Notes under the pieces: model-generated
What the model was told of the DNA's origin: nothing
The model's database searches: none
The model's input: the letters and a program-made list of their open reading frames with translations, nothing else
IMG/VR virus record: IMGVR_UViG_2974580128_000001
Direction: 5' to 3' (one strand)
Source of the DNA: a virus
Taxonomy: Duplodnaviria > Heunggongvirae > Uroviricota > Caudoviricetes > Herelleviridae
Length of the DNA: 64,000 bases
In this document: positions 2,984 through 55,801 of the stretch, in pieces
How the letters are laid out: each line of letters begins with the position of its first letter
Numbering within the stretch: the first letter of the stretch is position 1
Position numbers and translations under genes: made by a program

Positions 2984-3367
2984 ATGACAACTTTAAAAGA
3001 AGCATACAACGAAATTATTGAAAGCAACCTAAACAACCCAGAAGAACGCAAAACATACTTACAGGACTTAACACAACACGGGGCAATTAGCGGAATGGTT
3101 AGCGGTTTGATTTACTACCACGAAACAACTCAATTTTTTAATGAACACCGTGACGAAATTCTTGCAATGTTACACGAATTAAAAGAAGAAACGGGGCTAG
3201 ACGAAAAAGGGCTATTCGGTGACAAGTGGAACGATTGGGAAGACTTACTAGAAGACGAAGCGGACGACTTAGACCCGTTAGCAGACACAAACAATCAAAA
3301 TTTACTAGCATGGTTTGCGGTGGAAGAACTAGCAAAGAAAGAACTTGACGAACTAGAAGAAGCATAG
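2984..3367 (+). CDS. hypothetical acidic early protein
   Basis: 127-aa ORF, RBS agagggaa. Confidence 0.55.
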   Translation: MTTLKEAYNEIIESNLNNPEERKTYLQDLTQHGAISGMVSGLIYYHETTQFFNEHRDEILAMLHELKEETGLDEKGLFGDKWNDWEDLLEDEADDLDPLADTNNQNLLAWFAVEELAKKELDELEEA

Positions 3368-6199: not shown

Positions 6200-6424
6200 A
6201 TGAAAGCAATTATAATTAAACAGCTTAAGGACGGTTACAACGGCATTATAGCACGTAAGGAAAACGGTTGGACAAAAGAGGAACTAATCAATTTTACAGC
6301 GGGCGTAAGCAATATACTATTTGACCTTATCAACGATTTACAGGGCGGGGGCTTTATCACAGACAAGGAAGCGGAGGAAATAGAGGAAGTATTTTCTAAC
6401 ACTATTGACACACTAGAATTTTAA
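6200..6424 (+). CDS. hypothetical early protein
   Basis: 74-aa ORF, RBS aagggagggg. Confidence 0.5.
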   Translation: MKAIIIKQLKDGYNGIIARKENGWTKEELINFTAGVSNILFDLINDLQGGGFITDKEAEEIEEVFSNTIDTLEF

Positions 6425-10387: not shown

Positions 10388-10825
10388 TTACTCCCATAGG
10401 AATATATCGTTTCTTATAACAAAAATGTCTTCTAGCGGAGTATTATAATGCAACTCTACATTATGATTCTCTTTCATGTAGGTTTTTGCATAATCAAATA
10501 AATGCTCTGGACACTTAAAACTAAATGAACCGCCATCTGCATCTTTGCAGGCTATATGCTCTTCCATAGTACTATTGACAAACCAGTTTACACACTTTGG
10601 TGGATAACCTAGCATAATTCCTAGTGCATAATCTTTTCCGTGTTTTCCTGATAATTTAGAAAACTCAGCTAGTTGTTCCAATTTAGAAACAACAAGTATG
10701 TCATTTTTGCCTACAGAAGTTGCAAAATGCTCCCGTACAACACGTTTAAGTTCTGGTGTCCCAATAAAGATGGTATCTCTTAGTCCCAAATTAAATGCCA
10801 CAGTTTCTTCTGCTAAAATAACCAT
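10388..10825 (-). CDS. hypothetical protein
   Basis: 145-aa ORF, RBS agaggagagg. Confidence 0.55.
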   Translation of the reverse strand: MVILAEETVAFNLGLRDTIFIGTPELKRVVREHFATSVGKNDILVVSKLEQLAEFSKLSGKHGKDYALGIMLGYPPKCVNWFVNSTMEEHIACKDADGGSFSFKCPEHLFDYAKTYMKENHNVELHYNTPLEDIFVIRNDIFLWE

Positions 10826-10888
10826 GATAACCTCTCCTCTTATACCTAATTACTCTTTTGATAGTTTGCTTCTTCTAATTGTCCTCCT

Positions 10889-12133
10889 CTATTTCGCTTT
10901 AAAATTGTAAACAGGCTTAACAATCTTTTGAATGTCTACTGTATCCTTGATTATTTCTTTGATTTCGTCAGCATCCTTGTATGCTTTTGGTGCTTCATCT
11001 AGTGTACTTTGAACAACAGATGTTGTATAAATACCAGACATTGTTTGTTTAAACTCGTCTAAGTCAAGTAATTCTTTTGCTTTAGAACGAGACAATACAC
11101 GTCCTGCTCCATGGGGTGCAGAATTATTCCAATCAGTGTTTCCTTTTCCTACACCGATGATAGAGCCTTCTTTCATGTTTAAAGGAATAACAAGTCTAAC
11201 ACCCTCCTGTGCATCTGTGGCACCTTTACGAATAGTGTTGGAATCTACATCAATATAATTATGAATAGAGTCAAATAAGTCAACTACAGTCCAACCCATG
11301 TTAGCAACAATCTTATCAATGATAGTTTTACGATTCATGTAAGCATAACGTTGTGCTAGTTGCATATCGTTTAAATAGTCATCCACTGCGGAACCTTCTA
11401 AGTATGGCAATTGTGGTTTAACATTGACAGCTTTAAAATTCTTAATAGCCTCTTGAATTTCTGACTGTCTGCCTTCTTGCTTAAGTGTTTCAATCATAGT
11501 TGCTAAACCTTTGTCATCACGTTCATGGTATAAATCCGCTTTCTTCTGGTGATATTGGGCTACTTTAAGTCCTAAAGAACGGGAACCTGTGTGAACTAAC
11601 AAGTAGTAATTGTTTTCGTCATCTTTACTTAATTCGATAAAATGATTTCCACCACCTAAAGTACCTAAAGACAAGGTAACACGTTCAATAAATGGTTCTT
11701 CTGTTGCACCTTTAAACGTCATAGATTCTAACATGTGCTTAATCGTATTCGGTACAGTAGGATGAAGTTCGTCCAAATTTTCTCTAATGTTAAACCCAGA
11801 AGGAACCACTTTGTTAATCACTGCATCCAATTTAGCCCATTCGGTATCTGTCGTGTCTTCTGGCTTTTCAATTTGAGCTACCATAATACCACAACCTACA
11901 TCTACGCCAACAATAGAGGGTACAACTCGATTGATACCATCTGGATAATGAATTGTTGTCCCAACTGTAGAACCTTTACCATAGTGTGCATCTGGCATAA
12001 TTCTAACAATGCCACCGTCTGTTACCGGTTCATTAATCATTGTTGTAACCTGACCGATAGTGCCTTCATCCACCGTGTTAATAAACATTTTCGCATCGGT
12101 ATACTTACCATTAAGTTCAATTAAGTTATTCAT
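10889..12133 (-). CDS. rtcB: RtcB-family RNA 3'-phosphate ligase
   Basis: 414 aa; GGGNHFIEL and HGAGR motifs characteristic of RtcB. Confidence 0.85.
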   Translation of the reverse strand: MNNLIELNGKYTDAKMFINTVDEGTIGQVTTMINEPVTDGGIVRIMPDAHYGKGSTVGTTIHYPDGINRVVPSIVGVDVGCGIMVAQIEKPEDTTDTEWAKLDAVINKVVPSGFNIRENLDELHPTVPNTIKHMLESMTFKGATEEPFIERVTLSLGTLGGGNHFIELSKDDENNYYLLVHTGSRSLGLKVAQYHQKKADLYHERDDKGLATMIETLKQEGRQSEIQEAIKNFKAVNVKPQLPYLEGSAVDDYLNDMQLAQRYAYMNRKTIIDKIVANMGWTVVDLFDSIHNYIDVDSNTIRKGATDAQEGVRLVIPLNMKEGSIIGVGKGNTDWNNSAPHGAGRVLSRSKAKELLDLDEFKQTMSGIYTTSVVQSTLDEAPKAYKDADEIKEIIKDTVDIQKIVKPVYNFKAK

Positions 12134-12314
12134 CAGTTTTCTCCCCCACTAATACTTTCTTCATCTTTTCATCTAGTCTCTGTATAATCTCTTGTTGTTC
12201 CTGAGCTAGCTTTGCATGGTGTTCACGCTGTTTTTTATATTTAGCATAAGCAAATAGTTCTTCTGTAGTTAGTTCTTCTAATTTACGTGTAAATGGTGTA
12301 GCTTCAAATTCCAT
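12126..12314 (-). CDS. small coiled-coil protein
   Basis: 62-aa ORF coupled to rtcB (ATG of rtcB overlaps its stop). Confidence 0.45.
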   Translation of the reverse strand: MEFEATPFTRKLEELTTEELFAYAKYKKQREHHAKLAQEQQEIIQRLDEKMKKVLVGEKTDE

Positions 12315-12402
12315 TACAAGTACCTCCTTGTTTTTTATACTTAAAGTATATCATGTAAGATAAAAAGAAGCAAGCAGTTTTTACACTACTTGCTATACTT
12401 TT

Positions 12403-13146
12403 TTAAACAAATTCTTCTCTTACTTCTCCCCAACTTTGGTCTGGGTCTGGTAAGCTAAAAGGTAGCTTATCCTGTTCTTCCTTAGATAAGCTCTGATAGC
12501 ATTTCTCGTGTACTGCAATGGTTCCAGAACTCCCCTGAGCAATAGGTAACATACTAATCAATTCCCGCATGGCTTCCCTAAACTTTTTATAGTCTTCGTC
12601 TTCATCGTTATCGACTAGGGCATACACATCGCATTCTGCTTTACGTGCATTTGCAATGTTTTCCTCGCTAGGAGCATCATAGAAATTTTTTCTTTGTAAT
12701 TCAAGATACTTGACTGCTTTAGTTAGTCTTTTAGCGTAGTTTTTAGCTATCGGGTCAACATCAATACCATTTTGTAAATACTCTACTAATTGATACTTCG
12801 CATCCCCTGATGAGATACCGAATAAAGATAAGTAACTTGTAGATAAAATATCTCCACTTGGAAGTATCCTGTTAGAACCAAAATGGTGAGAATCCACCCT
12901 ACCAAATTCGGAATCACATATTTCAGAATGGCTATTAGGGTTTGGGACACCATCTGTTGTATGGTCTTCCCCTCTATAGTTCTTATCTTCCACAACACCA
13001 CCATATTCATTGTAATGTCCAACCGTTTCTCCAATTAATTTTCCCTGTCTAACATGCTTTAACCGACAAAGTTCCCCACCATTAAAGCAGTCACCCACAA
13101 TCTGTGTATTGCATACTGGACAAATATAACCAAAACATCCCATCAT
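12403..13146 (-). CDS. hypothetical protein with N-terminal zinc ribbon
   Basis: 247 aa; CPVCN...C...C near the N-terminus. Confidence 0.55.
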   Translation of the reverse strand: MMGCFGYICPVCNTQIVGDCFNGGELCRLKHVRQGKLIGETVGHYNEYGGVVEDKNYRGEDHTTDGVPNPNSHSEICDSEFGRVDSHHFGSNRILPSGDILSTSYLSLFGISSGDAKYQLVEYLQNGIDVDPIAKNYAKRLTKAVKYLELQRKNFYDAPSEENIANARKAECDVYALVDNDEDEDYKKFREAMRELISMLPIAQGSSGTIAVHEKCYQSLSKEEQDKLPFSLPDPDQSWGEVREEFV

Positions 13147-13829: not shown

Positions 13830-14571
13830 GTCCTAACCCTCCCACAAGTTGAAGCTCTTCATTTTTAAAGAAGACTTCCCTAGCTTTCTCTATTTGTTCT
13901 AGTATACGTACAGCTTGTGATGCGCCACCAAAACCATTATTGATATTCACAACAGAAATACCAGAAGTGCAACTAGTTAGCGCAGTATTTAACGCTGTGT
14001 AACCATCTGCTGAAATACCGTAACCTGTTGAAGTTGGTACAGCAATAATAGGTAAATCAATTAAACCTGCAAGTACTACAGGTAGTGCTCCCTCAAAGCC
14101 TTGTACAGATACTACCGCATTACTCTTTGTAATAGCATCTGTAGAAGCCATTAGTTTTTTCAAGTCATTTACACCAATGTCATGAAACGACACAGGGACA
14201 TATCCATTTAAAAGTACGGTTAAGTAAGCTTCGTCTACGGTGTCTCTATCAGCTACACCCGCAGATGTAATTGCCACAGATAGGTCACTCTCTGTAGGGT
14301 TTGCACGATAAAACGCTGTCTGACTAGACTTGCAATACACAAAAGGGCTTCCTTCTCCCCAATTATCTACCCAATCTGGTTCCTCTAGTTCCTCTGCTTT
14401 TTCTATAATTTCCCCCCAAGAGAGAACCTGTGATGTTTCAAAAGGTAGTGCATAGAACACGTCTAAAGGTAATTTTGTTACCATGATATTTGTATCTGCG
14501 GGTACCTCTGCAATCTGACTGGCTAGTTCCTGTGCGGTTTTATTTCCACCAAATAGTGTACGTAATTTCAT
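13813..14571 (-). CDS. PurE-fold / LarB-like enzyme (AIR-carboxylase superfamily)
   Basis: C-terminal half aligns by eye with PurE (SAGxxD...VQGFEGALPVVLAGL...PIIAVPTSTG...GxxVVNINNGFGGA), plus a ~90-aa N-terminal domain; overall architecture is LarB-like. Confidence 0.5.
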   Translation of the reverse strand: MKLRTLFGGNKTAQELASQIAEVPADTNIMVTKLPLDVFYALPFETSQVLSWGEIIEKAEELEEPDWVDNWGEGSPFVYCKSSQTAFYRANPTESDLSVAITSAGVADRDTVDEAYLTVLLNGYVPVSFHDIGVNDLKKLMASTDAITKSNAVVSVQGFEGALPVVLAGLIDLPIIAVPTSTGYGISADGYTALNTALTSCTSGISVVNINNGFGGASQAVRILEQIEKAREVFFKNEELQLVGGLGHESIS

Positions 14572-14813
14572 TAGTTAATCTCCTCTAAAAATTTAGTTTT
14601 GTCTACTGGTTCTATCGTTCCATCTTCCTCGATTCCTTGAACTTTGAATAGTAAGAACTCTGGCATCGCACAGACAACAGCAGGGTCATATGCTGTTTCC
14701 GGGTCACATGCCATCTCAAACATGTTAGTGTCTTTGTTATAGAAAAAACATAAGTCCCCGATTCTTTCATCTGGGTATAAAAAGTCAGCAATGTAAAAAG
14801 CCATGTATTTCAT
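14571..14813 (-). CDS. hypothetical protein
   Basis: 80-aa ORF, ATGA-coupled. Confidence 0.45.
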   Translation of the reverse strand: MKYMAFYIADFLYPDERIGDLCFFYNKDTNMFEMACDPETAYDPAVVCAMPEFLLFKVQGIEEDGTIEPVDKTKFLEEIN

Positions 14814-14814
14814 A

Positions 14815-15183
14815 CTAGTTCCCTCCTGTTATTTTATTGTATAGTTTAGTAAGAAATCCAATCTTTTTATTGCTAGGTTCAGTTATCAACCATGTTATTG
14901 TTAGTGATTTAATTCGTGGAGCCAAAGCATTTTGCAGATAAGTTACATAGTCATTCTCTTGGACAGATACTGAATAGCCCTTTCCTATTAAAAATCGGTT
15001 AACTGCCTCTACCTCCTGCTTGTTAATATTAATGTCAGAGATAACACACCAGTATTGCCCTAGCTCCACTGCTTCCTTAATACTAGGTAGTACCTTATTT
15101 TTAATAAAGTCTACGGAATTTTGGACTAACATTTCCTGTTCTTTTTCAACAGTCTTATTATAAACCTCCTCTGCTGACATCAT
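14815..15183 (-). CDS. hypothetical protein
   Basis: 122-aa ORF. Confidence 0.5.
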   Translation of the reverse strand: MMSAEEVYNKTVEKEQEMLVQNSVDFIKNKVLPSIKEAVELGQYWCVISDININKQEVEAVNRFLIGKGYSVSVQENDYVTYLQNALAPRIKSLTITWLITEPSNKKIGFLTKLYNKITGGN

Positions 15184-43310: not shown

Positions 43311-44843
43311 TTATTTAAGTGCTTCTTTTACAAAGTCGTATTCTGGTTTATTTAACACAGACAACATCATTTCTTCTGGGGAAGTAATTTCTCCGCCTAA
43401 CACTTGTGTTAAGATGTTTGTGGAGAACCCAGATACTAAAGCTGTTCCTTTTTCGTCAAAACGTACAGGTGTATTATCATGACGAGAGTTTACATTCCAG
43501 AATACTACAGATGGTAACTCGTAACCTGCCTGTTCGAACTTAAGTTTTGCTTGTTCATAGTTAGTGTAACCTGCCACACCTTGGTCAAATTCCATATCGG
43601 AAATAATAACGATTTTTGAAGGTAAATCATTTTGTGGTGTGTGGTTTTTCACCGCAGTAGATAAAATCAAGTCGAATACTTTTTGTAAATTTGTATTTCT
43701 AGCATTGTATGAACATTTATCGTAAGCTTTCATCTTATCCATAAGTGTACCTGACAATGGTAAGTTTACTAAACGAGGTTGTTCAGAAAATACGATGAAA
43801 TGACCTTTGAATGCACCACTTAAGCGTTCAGCAGTGTAGATAGCTAAACCTTCTGCAACTTCCCAAGGGGTAACATTTTCTGTACCACCCCATGTCATAG
43901 AACCAGAAGTATCCGCAACTACAATTGCATTATCTTCAATATCTTTCAACACATCGTCCATAGATTTCCATGTTGCTTCTAGTGAACGGTCTAATGTTCT
44001 GTAGTAACTTCTGCTACCATAAGCCCGAATTACTTCATGAGGTAACATGTTCTTTGCGTTCATTGTTACTTCCCCAGATTCTACTTTAGAAAGTAAATCT
44101 TCATATTCGTCTGGCATGTGTAATTGCAAAGCTTTACGGTATTTGAACAATGCTTTAGAGGATACTTGGTTCAAATCAATCTTATGGTATTCCTTGCTTG
44201 CTAACCGAACTTCAATTACATTTAAATAATCACGTAATTTAGCAATCATTTTACGATAACGAGTTAGACCTGCTTTACCTTCAAAACCTAAATAGTTAGC
44301 AATACGAGCACCTTGATTACGTTTCTTGCTATTTGGAGAACTTACATTAGCTAACCATTTACCTAGTAATGATACAGGCTCACCTTCTGACATGTTTTTA
44401 ATATCAGATGTTAGTTGGTTACCGATGATACGTGCACCTTCTGTATCCACAAAGTGAATACTACGTTTGTGTGCGTACTCCATAGTTTCAAATAAGTCTG
44501 TCCAACGACCAACATATGCCATGTACTCCATTAAAGTAACGATTACTTGCTTGTTTTGGTTACGACCATCCACTAAGTATTTGATTGCTTCTAGGTAAGC
44601 GGAACGTTCACCCAATCCACCTAAACGGATATTACGTAAGTGTACCAAATTGCGTAATGCTAACTCTGGGTTTTCATCGTAGGCTTTAGCAAACATGTTT
44701 CGTACATCTCCTAAACGACCACGCATAGCCCCTGCTTGTGCAAAGAAGTCTAAGTTAGCGTTTAAAGTTGATGTATAAGTTTTAGCTCCATTTTCTGTAG
44801 AACCAACAGTTGTTTCTTCTTTTAGGTTGTCTAAAAATGACAT
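43311..44843 (-). CDS. rsr: Ro60-like protein (Rsr ortholog: TROVE domain plus vWA/MIDAS)
   Basis: 510 aa; N-terminal TROVE-like helical region and C-terminal vWA domain with MIDAS motif DTSGSM; same architecture as bacterial Rsr. Confidence 0.7.
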   Translation of the reverse strand: MSFLDNLKEETTVGSTENGAKTYTSTLNANLDFFAQAGAMRGRLGDVRNMFAKAYDENPELALRNLVHLRNIRLGGLGERSAYLEAIKYLVDGRNQNKQVIVTLMEYMAYVGRWTDLFETMEYAHKRSIHFVDTEGARIIGNQLTSDIKNMSEGEPVSLLGKWLANVSSPNSKKRNQGARIANYLGFEGKAGLTRYRKMIAKLRDYLNVIEVRLASKEYHKIDLNQVSSKALFKYRKALQLHMPDEYEDLLSKVESGEVTMNAKNMLPHEVIRAYGSRSYYRTLDRSLEATWKSMDDVLKDIEDNAIVVADTSGSMTWGGTENVTPWEVAEGLAIYTAERLSGAFKGHFIVFSEQPRLVNLPLSGTLMDKMKAYDKCSYNARNTNLQKVFDLILSTAVKNHTPQNDLPSKIVIISDMEFDQGVAGYTNYEQAKLKFEQAGYELPSVVFWNVNSRHDNTPVRFDEKGTALVSGFSTNILTQVLGGEITSPEEMMLSVLNKPEYDFVKEALK

Positions 44844-44913: not shown

Positions 44914-45029
44914 CACTTTTTGTAAATAAAAAACTCATCCGATTAAGAATGAGTTTGTATGTAATATCAAGAACCACAGGCTTAATTAAATTCAATAGTT
45001 TTAATTTGTTAGTTGATTGCTGTAGGGTT

Positions 45030-45615
45030 CTTTATGCTCTGGCAACCTAAGAGGTTAGAGCTATGGCAAAATACCAAAACCTTTTTGATATGTAACAAGA
45101 ATCTATTTTATACGTTGCTCTACCAACTGAGCTACAGGGGGAATCATCCTCCCGGCAGGACTCGAACCTGCGACCAACGGCTCCATAGGCAATAAAAATC
45201 GCTGTTAGATTCTTTATGTTCCGGCACCCATCAAGGATGGAACTATAGCTATGCTAAAACCGTTTTATTTATGTATCAAGAAGCAGTTATGCCACCAATC
45301 GGCATCCTCATAATTTGGGTTGAGAATATAGGAGTTGAACCTAAGTAAGGGTTTGCTGTATGCTTCTTTATGCTTCGGCGCCCATTAAGGGTGAAGCTAT
45401 GACCTAAGCCAAAACCGTTTTATTTATGTAACAAGAACGCATTAACTTTAAGCTTTACCAATTAAGCTATACCACCAATGGTGGCAGTTGGATTCGAACC
45501 AACAACTCACATTTTTCAGATGTATTAGTTTTAAAAGTTTGCTGTGGCGTTCTTTATGTTCCGGCTACCTGTTAGGTTGGAACTATGACATATGTCAAAA
45601 CCTTTTTATCTTGTC
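45030..45615 (-). ncRNA. three tandem circularly permuted tRNA-like modules (Y-RNA/YrlA-like tRNA mimics) separated by four copies of a ~75-nt repeat
   Basis: minus-strand order in each module is T-arm (e.g. GGTCGCAGGTTCGAGTCCTGCC), closed acceptor-like hairpin, D-arm (e.g. GTAGCTCAGTTGGTAGAGC), all bracketed by an imperfect closing stem; repeat units A 45031-45108, B 45196-45270, C 45352-45428, D 45540-45612 show compensatory changes in an internal hairpin. Confidence 0.55.
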
Positions 45616-45926: not shown

Positions 45927-46008
45927 TGGGGAGTGATGGAGTTGCACCACCCGAGCTTTCGCAACTGATTTACAGTCAGCCCCGCTACTACTTACGGTAT
46001 AACTCCCC
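45927..46008 (-). tRNA. tRNA-Tyr(GTA) candidate, type II, atypical T-loop TGCAACT
   Basis: acceptor GGGGAGT/ACTCCCC, anticodon stem GCTGA/TCAGT with loop CTGTAAA, long variable arm. Confidence 0.35.
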
Positions 46009-46468: not shown

Positions 46469-46547
46469 TTAACTTATACATATATTATAACACAAACTTA
46501 CATGATGTCAACAACTATTTGTAAGTTTTTTTAATTTATCCATTCGG

Positions 46548-46634
46548 GACAGTGTGCTTTAACCATTCAGCCACCCGCAGGGGTAACCCGCAGGACGGGA
46601 TTCGAACCCGTATACCACTGTCCTATTGGATAGG
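46548..46634 (-). ncRNA. fourth permuted tRNA-like module (T-arm ACGGGTTCGAATCCCGT, then D-arm-like GCTGAATGGTTAAAGC) closed by 8-bp stem GGACAGTG/CACTGTCC
   Basis: T-arm precedes D-arm on the transcribed strand; no complementary acceptor strands at the ends; outer inverted repeat at 46548-46555 and 46627-46634. Confidence 0.45.
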
Positions 46635-46789
46635 CTTGTGTACCTGTCATCTTCCGATTACACACACCTAGTCTAGTTACCGTACCAATAGATTTGACAG
46701 GAATCTAGGGTAACGCCCAATATGGTGTTAATTTACCTTGTATTCTGTTACAGGTTTGCAACCCTGAACAAGGATGACCAATCCTAATG

Positions 46790-46859
46790 ATATGCGAGGG
46801 GATTTGAACCCCTATCTACTTCATAGGTCACTTTATCCACTTAAGCTACGCATACCTAT
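46790..46859 (-). tRNA. tRNA-like gene, anticodon undetermined (short D/anticodon region)
   Basis: acceptor GTATGCG/CGCATAT and T-arm AGGGGTTCAAATCCCCT are clear; body is ~6 nt shorter than canonical. Confidence 0.35.
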
Positions 46860-49603: not shown

Positions 49604-49680
49604 AAATGGAACTGAGGGGAATCGAACCCCTGTGTTGACGTAGAACCATACAAAATTCTACGGGCGTAGTTACTAGTTTT
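49604..49680 (-). ncRNA. tRNA-like 3' fragment (T-arm AGGGGTTCGATTCCCCT plus CAGTTCCA) with no identifiable 5' half
   Basis: clear T-arm and acceptor-like 3' strand; upstream is a 6-bp stem CGTAGA/TCTACG with a 12-nt loop instead of canonical anticodon/D arms. Confidence 0.3.
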
Positions 49681-50186
49681 AATCTACATTAAGGCTACAA
49701 CTAATAACTGAAATTACCTTAACTGAGTGGTAAAGCCTCTCCTGAGTTATCCACTTTTACCTCAGCGTTGTCGGTTAATGAATCCTCTAGGTAGAACCGA
49801 CCCTAATCTAGAGGGGTAAGTGTGTAGCTAGTCTAAAACTAGGCTACAGCTAGTAATTCTTCGTTTTTAGCAGTTATATTTACTGCGATGATTAAGTCAT
49901 CACTCTGCCCGCTATTCATATACTTCTTACGCCAGTCGAAACCAAAACAGCCCCAACATAAGAATTTCTTTTGACTAACCCTACCCTTCCGGCAGGGTCT
50001 AATCAAAAGTATACAATTAAAAAATGAAAATGAGTTACGGAAAATGTAACGTCTCCACCACCGGACTATAAGGGTAAGTTGTTCCGGTCTTTAACCTAAG
50101 TACTTTACTTAAATCTAACAGGACAGTCTTCATTACGTAAACTACTTAACCATGTAAAACGTAAAGGTCAATTTCCGTTGACCTAA

Positions 50187-51691: not shown

Positions 51692-51698
51692 GAAAAAT

Positions 51699-51793
51699 AC
51701 GGAAGACAGGATTTGAACCTGCGATATAGGAGTTTTAGTGCACTCATTGTCTCCCACGGTATCCGTTGCGTATTGCCATCACGCCACTCCCGT
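51699..51793 (-). tRNA. tRNA-like gene, unassigned (possible type II)
   Basis: T-arm GCAGGTTCAAATCCTGT and 3' acceptor CTTCCGT are clear; candidate 5' acceptor ACGGGAG lies 95 nt away; anticodon arm not resolved. Confidence 0.3.
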
Positions 51794-54749: not shown

Positions 54750-54821
54750 TAGCGCATGAGAGAGTCGAACTCTCGATTCCGGTTCGAAAGACCGGTGTCT
54801 TGACCGCTTGACCAATGCGCC
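54750..54821 (-). tRNA. tRNA-Glu(TTC)
   Basis: anticodon stem CCGGT/ACCGG with loop CTTTCGA, T-arm GAGAGTTCGACTCTCTC. Confidence 0.7.
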
Positions 54822-54826
54822 ATAAA

Positions 54827-54901
54827 CGAGCTATATGGGACTTGAACCCATGACCTTCTCCGTGACAGGGAGACGAGCACTCCTGACTGCTCCAATAGCC
54901 C
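54827..54901 (-). tRNA. tRNA-Asp(GTC)
   Basis: D-arm GAGCAGTCAGGAGTGCTC, anticodon stem TCTCC/GGAGA with loop CTGTCAC, T-arm ATGGGTTCAAGTCCCAT. Confidence 0.7.
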
Positions 54902-55026: not shown

Positions 55027-55098
55027 TGCGGTAGGTGGGAGTCGAACCCACTAAAGCTTGGTTATGAGCCAAGTGCCTAAACCGTTCGGCATCTCCGC
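55027..55098 (-). tRNA. tRNA with CAT anticodon (second Met or tRNA-Ile2/lysidine type)
   Basis: anticodon stem CTTGG/CCAAG with loop CTCATAA, T-arm GTGGGTTCGACTCCCAC; acceptor has one mismatch. Confidence 0.55.
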
Positions 55099-55801
55099 AG
55101 TAATACAAGTCTGGTTAAAAACTCAAAACTTAATAGATTAAGGGCTTTTCTTCCTGCTTCATATACACTCACTGCATTCGGTCACATACTCAGAGAGGCT
55201 GAACCATCGGGAGCTACCCAATAGCTTCTCTCTGCCTTTAATGTATGGTCTAGCACGGTGGCTAACAACGTTCACCTAAACATTCAGCATTAAAAGTATT
55301 ATTTTACATATAACCCATATGTCTTCTGTAATATTTTCATCCAACGCTGACTTAAGCTACTTGTACCAAGGTCTCTTGTTAAACCTGTATTTCTACAGTT
55401 CTCGTCAAAGGGAGTCTTTTGAGTTTTCCAAGGTCTGCCAAGCTTCTCACACTTCCACCTAACTTGGATTCTTTTCCACAGGAACGTCTATTGTATCCCC
55501 CAAGAGTCTTGTACCTTACAATCCATGTATACTCCACATAACGCTTAACTGATATTAGCTTTTACTAATAGTTACTCCTATGTTACCATAAGACCTACCT
55601 GCAACCCAAAGCACTATCGCACCTTCGGTTACATCCAGATTCACGCCACGTTATCCTAGCAAGCTGTTCAAACTTTCTGCACTAGGTTCAAAATCTATTA
55701 AGTTTTCAATTTTTAACCACTAACTTGTGGTGTAATACTAATATAGCATAACATTACAAAGTTGTAAACACCTTTTTGTAAGTTTTTTTGATTTTTTTTG
55801 A

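Follow-up and report, generated by a model that had tools for sequence, protein, structure and literature searches.

The first 64 kb of the genome of Enterococcus phage EfV12-phi1 (NC_048087.1; Schiekvirus, Herelleviridae; hereafter EfV12), which make up the window analyzed here, encode a tRNA-like RNA module on the minus strand at positions 46533 to 46634 (window coordinates are also record coordinates). We found that this module, M4, folds into a four-way junction of a closing rod, a T arm, a capped acceptor hairpin, and a D arm, and that its architecture matches that of bacterial Y RNAs of the YrlA type. We interpret it as the 3′ domain of a composite RNA of about 260 nucleotides (nt), in which a conserved pseudoknotted domain (X-domain) lies directly 5′ of the module. 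The existence of the module structure is near certain, given minimum free energy (MFE) folding, two covariance models (R1, 129 bits; R2, 107 bits), covariation among orthologues, and consensus folding with RNAalifold, and M4 is a well-supported new structured RNA. The interval is unannotated in EfV12, as it is in 30 of the 31 related phage records that hold the sequence at ≥95.7% identity.

A sequence-only reading of the region had described a permuted tRNA-like module closed by an 8-bp stem. All of the sequence elements that it listed are present on the minus strand, including CCTGCGGG-TTACC-CCTGCGGG at 46574 to 46594, and its “permuted” connectivity holds as well: from 5′ to 3′, the RNA runs through the 5′ strand of the rod, the T arm, the acceptor, the D arm, and the 3′ strand of the rod. 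The 8-bp stem is real to the extent that GGACAGTG and CACTGTCC form a perfect 8-nt inverted repeat, but its arms were misplaced. They are located at 46547 to 46554 (1 nt off) and at 46616 to 46623 (11 nt off), not at 46627 to 46634. Moreover, this stem is only the inner part of the closure. An outer helix, which had been overlooked, pairs UAUCCA (46627 to 46632, 5′ strand) with UGGAUA (46537 to 46542, 3′ strand); it is present in the fold, pairs in 78% of the cells of the orthologue alignment described below, and has changes on both sides in 3 of its 6 pairs. The rod thus has 14 bp in two parts, split by an asymmetric internal loop, AUA/CGAA, that is seen in the fold. On the 5′ side of this loop, AUA (46624 to 46626) is adjacent to a U-AGG that is nearly invariant among orthologues, while the CGAA of the 3′ side (46543 to 46546) is replaced in orthologues by CGUA, UGUA, or UGCAA. 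Readings of the loop as a K-turn or as loop E were judged by eye and dropped, as they fail across orthologues.

The inner closing helix joins the 5′ strand GGACAGUG (46616 to 46623), which stands in place of the 3′ strand of an anticodon stem, to the 3′ strand CACUGUCC (46547 to 46554), the equivalent of the 5′ strand of an anticodon stem. A comparison with related phages had been proposed as a check on this stem, and it bears the stem out: 6 of the 8 pairs show compensatory changes, and 98.6% of the cells pair. A 4-nt equivalent of the variable loop, GUAU (46612 to 46615), comes next, and its final U can be read from the sequence as the partner of A15 in a Levitt-type pair. The T arm, ACGGG-UUCGAAU-CCCGU (ACGGGTTCGAATCCCGT, 46595 to 46611), pairs in 100% of cells, with compensatory changes in 3 of 5 pairs and an invariant core, GGUUC.A.UCC. 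In the D arm, GCTGAATGGTTAAAGC (46556 to 46571), which reads GCU-GAAUGGUUAA-AGC and carries the conserved GG, 2 of the 3 pairs are compensatory and the loop residues GGU.A are invariant.

A further revision concerns the acceptor. The sequence-only reading stated that complementary acceptor strands were missing and took the two CCTGCGGG copies for a direct repeat without complementarity. In the fold, however, two G.U wobbles allow the copies to pair with each other, and the two CCUGCGGG strands form a capped, acceptor-like hairpin (46574 to 46594) of 8 bp, 2 of them G.U, closed by the 5-nt loop UUACC. This hairpin covaries, with 96.7% of cells paired and compensatory changes in 4 of 8 pairs. 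In tRNA numbering, it consists of CCUGCGG (66 to 72) and G73, which pairs with C(−1), followed across the UUACC cap by CUGCGGG (1 to 7). The chain then continues through U8, G9, a D arm with A14, A15, G18, and G19, and A26 into CACUGUCC. An anticodon loop is absent; at its position, the RNA chain enters and exits the module. The earlier conclusion that this is not an ordinary tRNA gene is upheld: ARAGORN calls no gene, the Rfam tRNA model finds no match at 46533 to 46634 even at E ≤ 10, the acceptor is capped and has no outer strands, and the rod is open.

On the minus strand, the MFE is −43.3 kcal/mol (z = −3.17), a value that none of 200 shuffled sequences reached, and the MFE structure is a clean four-way junction. 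Folding is less stable on the plus strand (−38.1 kcal/mol, z = −2.0). Because the G.U pairs of the acceptor hairpin turn into A.C on the plus strand and the fold is weaker there, we ruled out a plus-strand RNA and assigned the module to the minus strand, which also carries the genes and tRNAs that surround it. Given that about 0.9 chance inverted-repeat matches to the 8-mer GGACAGTG are expected per window, the inverted repeat by itself is unremarkable. The case that the structure is more than chance comes from its stability, from covariation in orthologues, and from a covariance-model control.

To find orthologues, covariance model R1, built from the module and its near-identical variants, was searched against loci encoding relatives of a neighboring DUF2828 protein, gp087; R2 is a broadened model of the module, and E-values from R1 and from similarly built models, including R3 introduced below, are rough. 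Diverged orthologues were found in four uncultured phage lineages, in which the neighboring protein is 74% (locus L009), 70% (L091), 63% (L090), and 59% (L092/L093) identical to that of EfV12. The orthologue set is small, with five independent lineages. In a plain MAFFT alignment of nine sequences that had not been fitted to the structure, the proposed pairs form in 93.8% of cells, compared with 30 to 52% in controls in which the partners were slid by 1 to 3 columns. Changes on both sides are seen in 18 of the 30 pairs and in all five helices, covariation scores 0.431 (≤0.114 in the slid controls), and none of 500 shuffles matches the observed values on any of five measures. RNAalifold recovered the same fold from a longer alignment without structure input, and so did single-sequence folding of each of the orthologues from L009, L091, and L090. 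The invariant columns are GGUUC.A.UCC of the T-loop and GGU.A of the D-loop, the residues that build the elbow of tRNAs. As read from the alignments, positions 15 and 48, which would form the Levitt-type pair, are A and U in EfV12 and L090, G and C in L009, and ambiguous in L091 (A:C) and L092. The L092 orthologue (6260 to 6340, equivalent to 42 to 122 of L093) has lost the acceptor hairpin, which leaves almost nothing between the T arm and the D arm, and has kept the two-part rod; the acceptor hairpin is therefore dispensable. Given the covariation in diverged orthologues that keep every helix, we conclude that the module is a selected structure and not a tRNA relic.

As a control for specificity, R2 was searched against 688 kb of unrelated viral contigs, namely IMG/VR loci picked up by a 16-mer of the X-domain, AAGGTRAATTRACACC, and it had no match at E < 1e−3 except one true orthologue. 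The IMG/VR scan with this 16-mer was itself unspecific, as only one of the more than 120 stretches that it returned was real. A scan of a single metagenome gave near-identical Schiekvirus-like contigs only, and blastn with the diverged X-domain and module of L092 found no match among cultured phages.

The X-domain is a multihelix pseudoknotted RNA domain of about 155 nt that occupies 46636 to 46790 on the minus strand, as defined by RNAalifold and by its own covariance model, R3. Its counterparts are located at 3018 to 3172 in L009, 6226 to 6378 in L090, 3454 to 3603 in L091, and 6110 to 6259 in L092. A long-range helix closes the domain, which also contains one hairpin with the loop UUGCAA, another of sequence GGUG-AAUURA-CACC, and a helix that varies by lineage (GUUACC/GGUAAC or ACUACC/GGUAGU). 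A pseudoknot between a hairpin loop and sequence downstream occurs in three complementary versions, CCUGUCA/UGACAGG, CUUGCC/GGCAAG, and ACCUAUC/GAUAGGU. Over the X-domain and the module together, 32 of 53 pairs in the RNAalifold structure show compensatory change. The R3 model scores 111 to 165 bits in exactly the seven sources that bear the module and finds nothing else in 1.19 Mb of DUF2828 loci. The two domains co-occur in all seven of these sources and nowhere else among the 91 sources compared. Because of this co-occurrence and the conservation of the X-domain in every module-bearing lineage, we consider the two to be parts of one composite RNA. The X-domain has no match in Rfam. A tRNA or pseudo-tRNA always abuts its 5′ end, in EfV12 and in the orthologous loci alike. 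The composite RNA would be transcribed within the phage tRNA array, and 3′ processing of the abutting tRNA probably frees its 5′ end. In EfV12, the abutting gene (46789 to 46855, minus strand; Rfam tRNA, 41.7 bits) is annotated as tRNA-Pseudo-ATG. Its anticodon arm is truncated or odd, it has no variable loop, and ARAGORN makes no call there; its anticodon stem, CCUAU/AUAGG, reappears as CCUAU-CCA-AUAGG at the 5′ edge of the module.

Neither the precedent for this architecture nor its genomic context had been recognized in the sequence-only reading. The precedent is provided by the YrlA RNAs (Chen et al. 2014, PMC4201824). By definition, the 5′ and 3′ parts of these RNAs enclose a T arm, an acceptor-like stem capped by a loop, and a D arm; close to the 5′ end they carry the motif GNCGAAN0-1G, which is presumed to contact Ro60, and they are encoded on the strand of a Ro60 orthologue that is no more than 4 kb away. 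In M4, the fold, the covariation, and RNAalifold all reveal the T arm, the capped stem, and the D arm, in this order and enclosed by the closing stem, together with the elbow residues. YrlA (RF02553) is also the sole non-tRNA Rfam family to match the module over its full length (28.4 bits, E = 4e−4 to 2e−3). Another shared feature is the long acceptor-like stem of the Mycobacterium smegmatis YrlA, which has 7 bp there and 8 bp in the module and in three of its diverged orthologues. In M. smegmatis, this stem allows the cap to be cleaved by RNase P and CCA to be added (Chen et al. 2014, PMC4201824); since the L092 orthologue has no acceptor hairpin, cleavage of the cap cannot be a conserved function of the phage RNA.

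The context is a gene for a protein with a Ro60-like predicted fold. Located 1.69 kb downstream of the module on the same strand (43311 to 44843), gene gp087 is annotated only as encoding an “RNA-binding protein.” It encodes a DUF2828 protein with a vWA domain (Pfam DUF7788, 2e−45; DUF2828, 3e−26), and the module orthologues likewise lie 1.5 to 2.7 kb upstream of their DUF2828 genes. The AlphaFold2 model of gp087 (predicted local distance difference test score, 92; predicted template modeling score, 0.91) is a ring of helical repeats plus a vWA domain. In a Foldseek search, the top eight PDB matches are full-length matches to Ro60, Rsr, or TROVE structures (E = 6e−7 to 2e−5; template modeling score, 0.44 to 0.60; about 14% identity), and these include Xenopus Ro60, Deinococcus Rsr, and the Ro60 of Thermus phage phiLo. 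The likeness is recognizable by fold alone: gp087 has no match to the Pfam TROVE family, and a profile of the DUF2828 family searched against PDB sequences gave nothing useful. The DxSxS motif of the vWA domain is invariant across the gp087 family, which is very large, with 7,465 matches at E ≤ 1e−5 among 8,000 candidates scored and at least 586 IMG/VR loci. We consider gp087 a candidate protein partner of the RNA.

RNA repair genes complete this context. EfV12 encodes RtcB (10889 to 12133, minus strand; Pfam, 1e−59), and in the relative L095, an RtcB of unusual length (717 amino acids; 10607 to 12760) and an RNA ligase (14135 to 15082) are encoded just downstream of the DUF2828 gene. Together, the EfV12 RtcB and the two L095 genes support an RNA-repair setting. 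With its Ro60-like gene and RtcB, EfV12 parallels the bacterial rsr-yrlBA-rtcBA arrangement, the operon known from Salmonella. Y RNAs that mimic tRNAs beside Ro60 genes have been described before, including in some phages (PMC4201824, PMC12135203, PMC7824862). The Yrl1 and Yrl2 RNAs of Thermus phage phiLo, which are described as stem-bulge-stem RNAs identified by CGAA in the stem bulge (PMC12135203; PDB 9L5Y, 9KOP), are similarly phage-encoded small RNAs upstream of a Ro60-fold protein gene, and the Ro60 structures of phiLo are among the best structural matches of gp087. They differ in that the description consulted (PMC12135203) mentions no tRNA-like domain for them, and in that the CGAA of the module is on the 3′ side of the internal loop and is not conserved.

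A second set of tRNA-shaped RNAs lies closer to gp087. At 44957 to 45615 on the minus strand, between a predicted promoter (45647 to 45619) and a predicted terminator (44956 to 44931), we found an array of four units with the motif ACAGCRA (at 45545, 45359, 45205, and 45023), which form a single predicted transcription unit. Each unit has a conserved leader hairpin of about 50 nt, then AUAAAGAA, and then ACAGCRA, and the units share a conserved rod, AUAAAGAA.../...UUCUUGWUACAUA. Units A (approximately 45436 to 45524) and C (approximately 45099 to 45190) have clear YrlA-like, tRNA-shaped cores with a capped acceptor, unit B is degenerate, and unit D (approximately 44960 to 45060) has the rod and the motif without a tRNA-like core. 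Two modules of the array match Rfam YrlA at 45.2 and 34.3 bits and R2 at 34.8 and 27.4 bits, and there is no YrlA match at the gathering threshold in the window or in 10 other DUF2828 loci. Across loci, within 1 kb upstream of DUF2828 genes and on the same strand, there are 2.74 copies of ACAGCRA per kb, compared with 0.19 per kb elsewhere, an enrichment of about 15-fold, and 58 of 70 diverse IMG/VR phage DUF2828 loci (L008 to L085) have at least one copy.

In other DUF2828 loci, Rfam “tRNA” matches of 114 to 123 nt are tRNA-like RNAs of standard topology with a long arm, and in L033 and others it is these RNAs that contain ACAGCRA. In L033 (5575 to 5927), for example, three 115-nt units have standard tRNA connectivity, an open acceptor stem, and an encoded ACCA, and a long arm carrying UAACAGCAA replaces the anticodon arm; the EfV12 array units look like circular permutations of this design. 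The sequence-only reading had placed M4 in one family with the modules of the array. The common connectivity is confirmed for approximately 45100 to 45190 and for 45436 to 45524, which score 21 to 35 bits with models built on M4 only. Both sets also share the tRNA-shaped core, the locus, and the strand. They are not one uniform family, however. M4 has neither ACAGCRA nor the AUAAAGAA/UUCUUGWUACAUA rod, the X-domain occurs only with M4, and in many phages the ACAGCRA units have standard tRNA connectivity and an encoded CCA end. Because M4 and all of its orthologues are without ACAGCRA, M4 is, judged by its sequence, a subfamily paralogous to the array units but distinct from them.

How might such an RNA act? 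As transcribed, M4 can be neither aminoacylated nor decoded, since its acceptor end is capped and it has no anticodon. What it would present instead is the T-loop/D-loop elbow, on a rod that carries the entering and exiting strands. We infer the protein partners and the biological role of the composite RNA as follows. Its most likely action is Y-RNA-like, docking proteins that recognize tRNAs, or gp087, or both, and the setting would be an RNA surveillance and repair toolkit that includes the Ro60-like protein, RtcB, a transfer-messenger RNA (tmRNA), and more than 20 tRNAs. On the whole, we lean toward this picture, in which M4 is a functional tRNA-mimic domain that acts like a YrlA Y RNA in RNA surveillance or repair. 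That M4 binds gp087 specifically is a more tentative suggestion, which we put forward with some doubt because the signature ACAGCRA is absent from the module.

Several observations weigh against the Y-RNA-like picture. ACAGCRA is found neither in 46533 to 46790 nor in any orthologue of the module, so that nothing links M4 specifically to binding of gp087, given how strongly the motif is enriched upstream of DUF2828 genes. The YrlA score of the module is far under the gathering score of 69, and that of the L009 orthologue is lower still (21.8 bits). The 5′ strand reads CCUAUCCAAUAGG and does not contain GNCGAAN0-1G; CCCGAAUGG is present only on the 3′ strand, where the CGAA is not kept in orthologues. 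M4 also differs from YrlA in having a 4-nt linker in place of the V stem-loop and in being fused to a 155-nt pseudoknotted domain that is absent from YrlA. The protein gene next to it is on the same strand and within the YrlA range of distance, but the protein resembles Ro60 in its predicted fold alone. Furthermore, the module and the X-domain are limited to a narrow clade. Among cultured phages, the composite RNA occurs in only about 30 Enterococcus Schiekvirus genomes, and several relatives have the DUF2828 gene without the RNA (L089, with 78% protein identity, L094, L095, and L220 to L222). Several features set the RNA apart from known Y RNAs: it fails the YrlA threshold, does not have the YrlA motif, stands beside a protein family that is not annotated as Ro60, is fused to an undescribed domain, and is unannotated in all carrier genomes but one. 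Literature searches on DUF2828 and on Schiekvirus tRNAs and tmRNA found no description of these RNAs or of RNA partners of DUF2828 proteins.

A further point against comes from phage EFP01 (L005; KY549443.1, 110788 to 115901), which has four clean deletions relative to EfV12. In window coordinates, these remove 47050 to 46634 (part of tRNA-Arg, tRNA-Ala, the pseudo-tRNA, and the X-domain), 46479 to 46027 (tRNA-Pro and tRNA-Gly), 45604 to 44957 (the whole ACAGCRA array), and 44784 to 43443 (DUF2828 residues 21 to 460). The module is nevertheless retained, and its retention is thus independent of the DUF2828 protein. The database record of EFP01 is that of a complete phage genome, from which it is evident that the phage can be isolated and grown without the DUF2828 locus. 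From the pattern of its deletions, we regard EFP01 as a natural knockout of the system.

Some of these observations would fit a composite RNA that is a new class independent of the Ro60-like protein, the main alternative, which we consider unlikely but which should be taken seriously. Such an RNA could be a nonchargeable tRNA decoy or sponge for host tRNA-directed enzymes or defense nucleases, or the X-domain could bind a ligand or be catalytic, with the tRNA-like part as a stabilizing or recruiting handle. The strict co-occurrence of X-domain and module, neither of which contains ACAGCRA, would be expected of such a class, as would the DUF2828 phages that have no composite RNA and the persistence of the module in EFP01 without an intact gp087 gene. 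The covarying pseudoknot of the X-domain, which matches nothing in Rfam, and the conservation of the elbow where the acceptor hairpin is dispensable (L092) point the same way. However, the RNA has so far been found only in genomes with a DUF2828 locus, upstream of the DUF2828 gene at the short distance given above and on the same strand. This co-occurrence is partly by construction, because the search for orthologues covered only loci reached through the DUF2828 protein or through sequence similarity. In addition, an RNA without an anticodon loop cannot be a decoy for anticodon nucleases, and we recognized no ligand or ribozyme signature in the composite RNA. A broader conjecture, possible but in our view doubtful, is that the X-domain and module (46533 to 46790) represent an undescribed class of composite phage RNAs that tRNA-processing enzymes make from the tRNA array and that may have a function of their own, such as hijacking or blocking a host factor that binds tRNA elbows or a tRNA-directed defense. 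This class would belong to a wider set of tRNA-shaped RNAs, standard and permuted, which hundreds of phages would encode next to their genes for DUF2828 proteins of Ro60 fold.

It is improbable that the composite RNA is instead a cis-acting leader or a processing or stability element, be it a punctuation mark for RNase P and RNase Z or a 5′ stabilizer of the mRNA for a WDGH-domain protein. This idea arises from four lineages in which an open reading frame (ORF) of about 120 to 130 amino acids with a WDGH domain (PF25311) follows the module orthologue, which ends 14 to 18 nt before the ribosome-binding site and start codon of that ORF (approximately 3283 in L009, 6499 to 6870 in L090, 3717 to 4103 in L091, and 6358 to 6723 in L092). 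In EfV12 and about 30 other Schiekvirus genomes, however, there is no ORF at this place, and a consensus sigma-70 promoter and tRNA-Pro come after the module. No WDGH homologue is present in the EfV12 window, while L089 has a WDGH ORF (2280 to 2672) without the RNA. Besides, with the acceptor capped, RNase P cannot separate the RNA upstream from the RNA downstream.

Two further readings are contradicted by the evidence, and we give them hardly any weight. One is a functionless, decaying remnant, made of the 3′ half of a tRNA gene and the 5′ half of its successor, or a junction of tandem tRNAs that merely resembles YrlA. The module does sit in a tRNA array beside a pseudo-tRNA, and Chen et al. 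(2014, PMC4201824) warn that tRNA dimers can score as YrlA. Indeed, the true junction of tandem tRNA-Asp and tRNA-Glu genes in the window (54773 to 54873) scores 15 to 21 bits with R1 and R2, but this is far from the 107 to 129 bits of M4. There are no tRNA halves at its flanks, and all five helices, including the closing rod, which is foreign to such a junction, have compensatory changes between lineages whose neighboring proteins are only 59 to 74% identical. The other is a circularly permuted gene for a translation RNA, either a permuted tRNA or part of a two-piece tmRNA, whose function would be restored by processing. Permuted tRNA genes occur in Cyanidioschyzon. The order of T arm, acceptor 3′ strand, linker, acceptor 5′ strand, and D arm is that of a permuted tRNA or tmRNA (ssrA) gene, and a pseudoknot is present in the upstream domain, near the T arm and acceptor stem as in tmRNA; yet the module has a capped acceptor, a full D arm, an open 14-bp rod at the “anticodon” position, and G-C instead of the alanine identity pair G3:U70, no tag ORF follows it, Rfam tmRNA_permuted gives 10 bits (T arm only; threshold, 47), L092 has no acceptor hairpin, and the window already encodes a standard tmRNA.

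Returning to the Y-RNA-like picture, we see its interest in the phages concerned. tRNA-like domains have been known in Y RNAs of bacteria and of a few phages that encode a recognizable Ro60, and the YrlA-type architecture is now found in Schiekvirus, a genus of therapeutic phages, beside a DUF protein of Ro60-like predicted fold. The occurrence of ACAGCRA-bearing, tRNA-shaped RNAs before the DUF2828 genes of 58 of the 70 loci suggests that Ro-like ribonucleoproteins are far more common in phages than annotation implies. The RNAs also provide a natural series for examining the purpose of tRNA mimicry, with standard and permuted forms, forms with and without the acceptor hairpin or the X-domain, and the multiple deletions of EFP01.

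The tRNA region that surrounds the module has other noncoding RNAs. In total, ARAGORN reports 23 tRNAs and a tmRNA in the window, to which Rfam adds a ROOL RNA. The standard tmRNA (49604 to 49954, minus strand) has the tag AKNEELLAVA, and the ROOL RNA (55124 to 55710, minus strand; 260 bits) is full length. Given these two RNAs within the tRNA region, the phage carries several large structured RNAs. Between the ACAGCRA array and the module, a sequence resembling tRNA-Tyr(GTA), with a long variable arm (45929 to 46006, minus strand), goes unreported by ARAGORN and scores 27.7 bits with the Rfam tRNA model, just short of the threshold of 29 bits; its homologue in phage 113 (L004, 3153 to 3234) is annotated as tRNA-Tyr. 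Two more Rfam tRNA matches on the minus strand are unreported by ARAGORN, one at 55027 to 55098 (43.4 bits) and one at 51698 to 51793 (33.3 bits), the latter of which is 96 nt long, suggesting an insertion or an intron.

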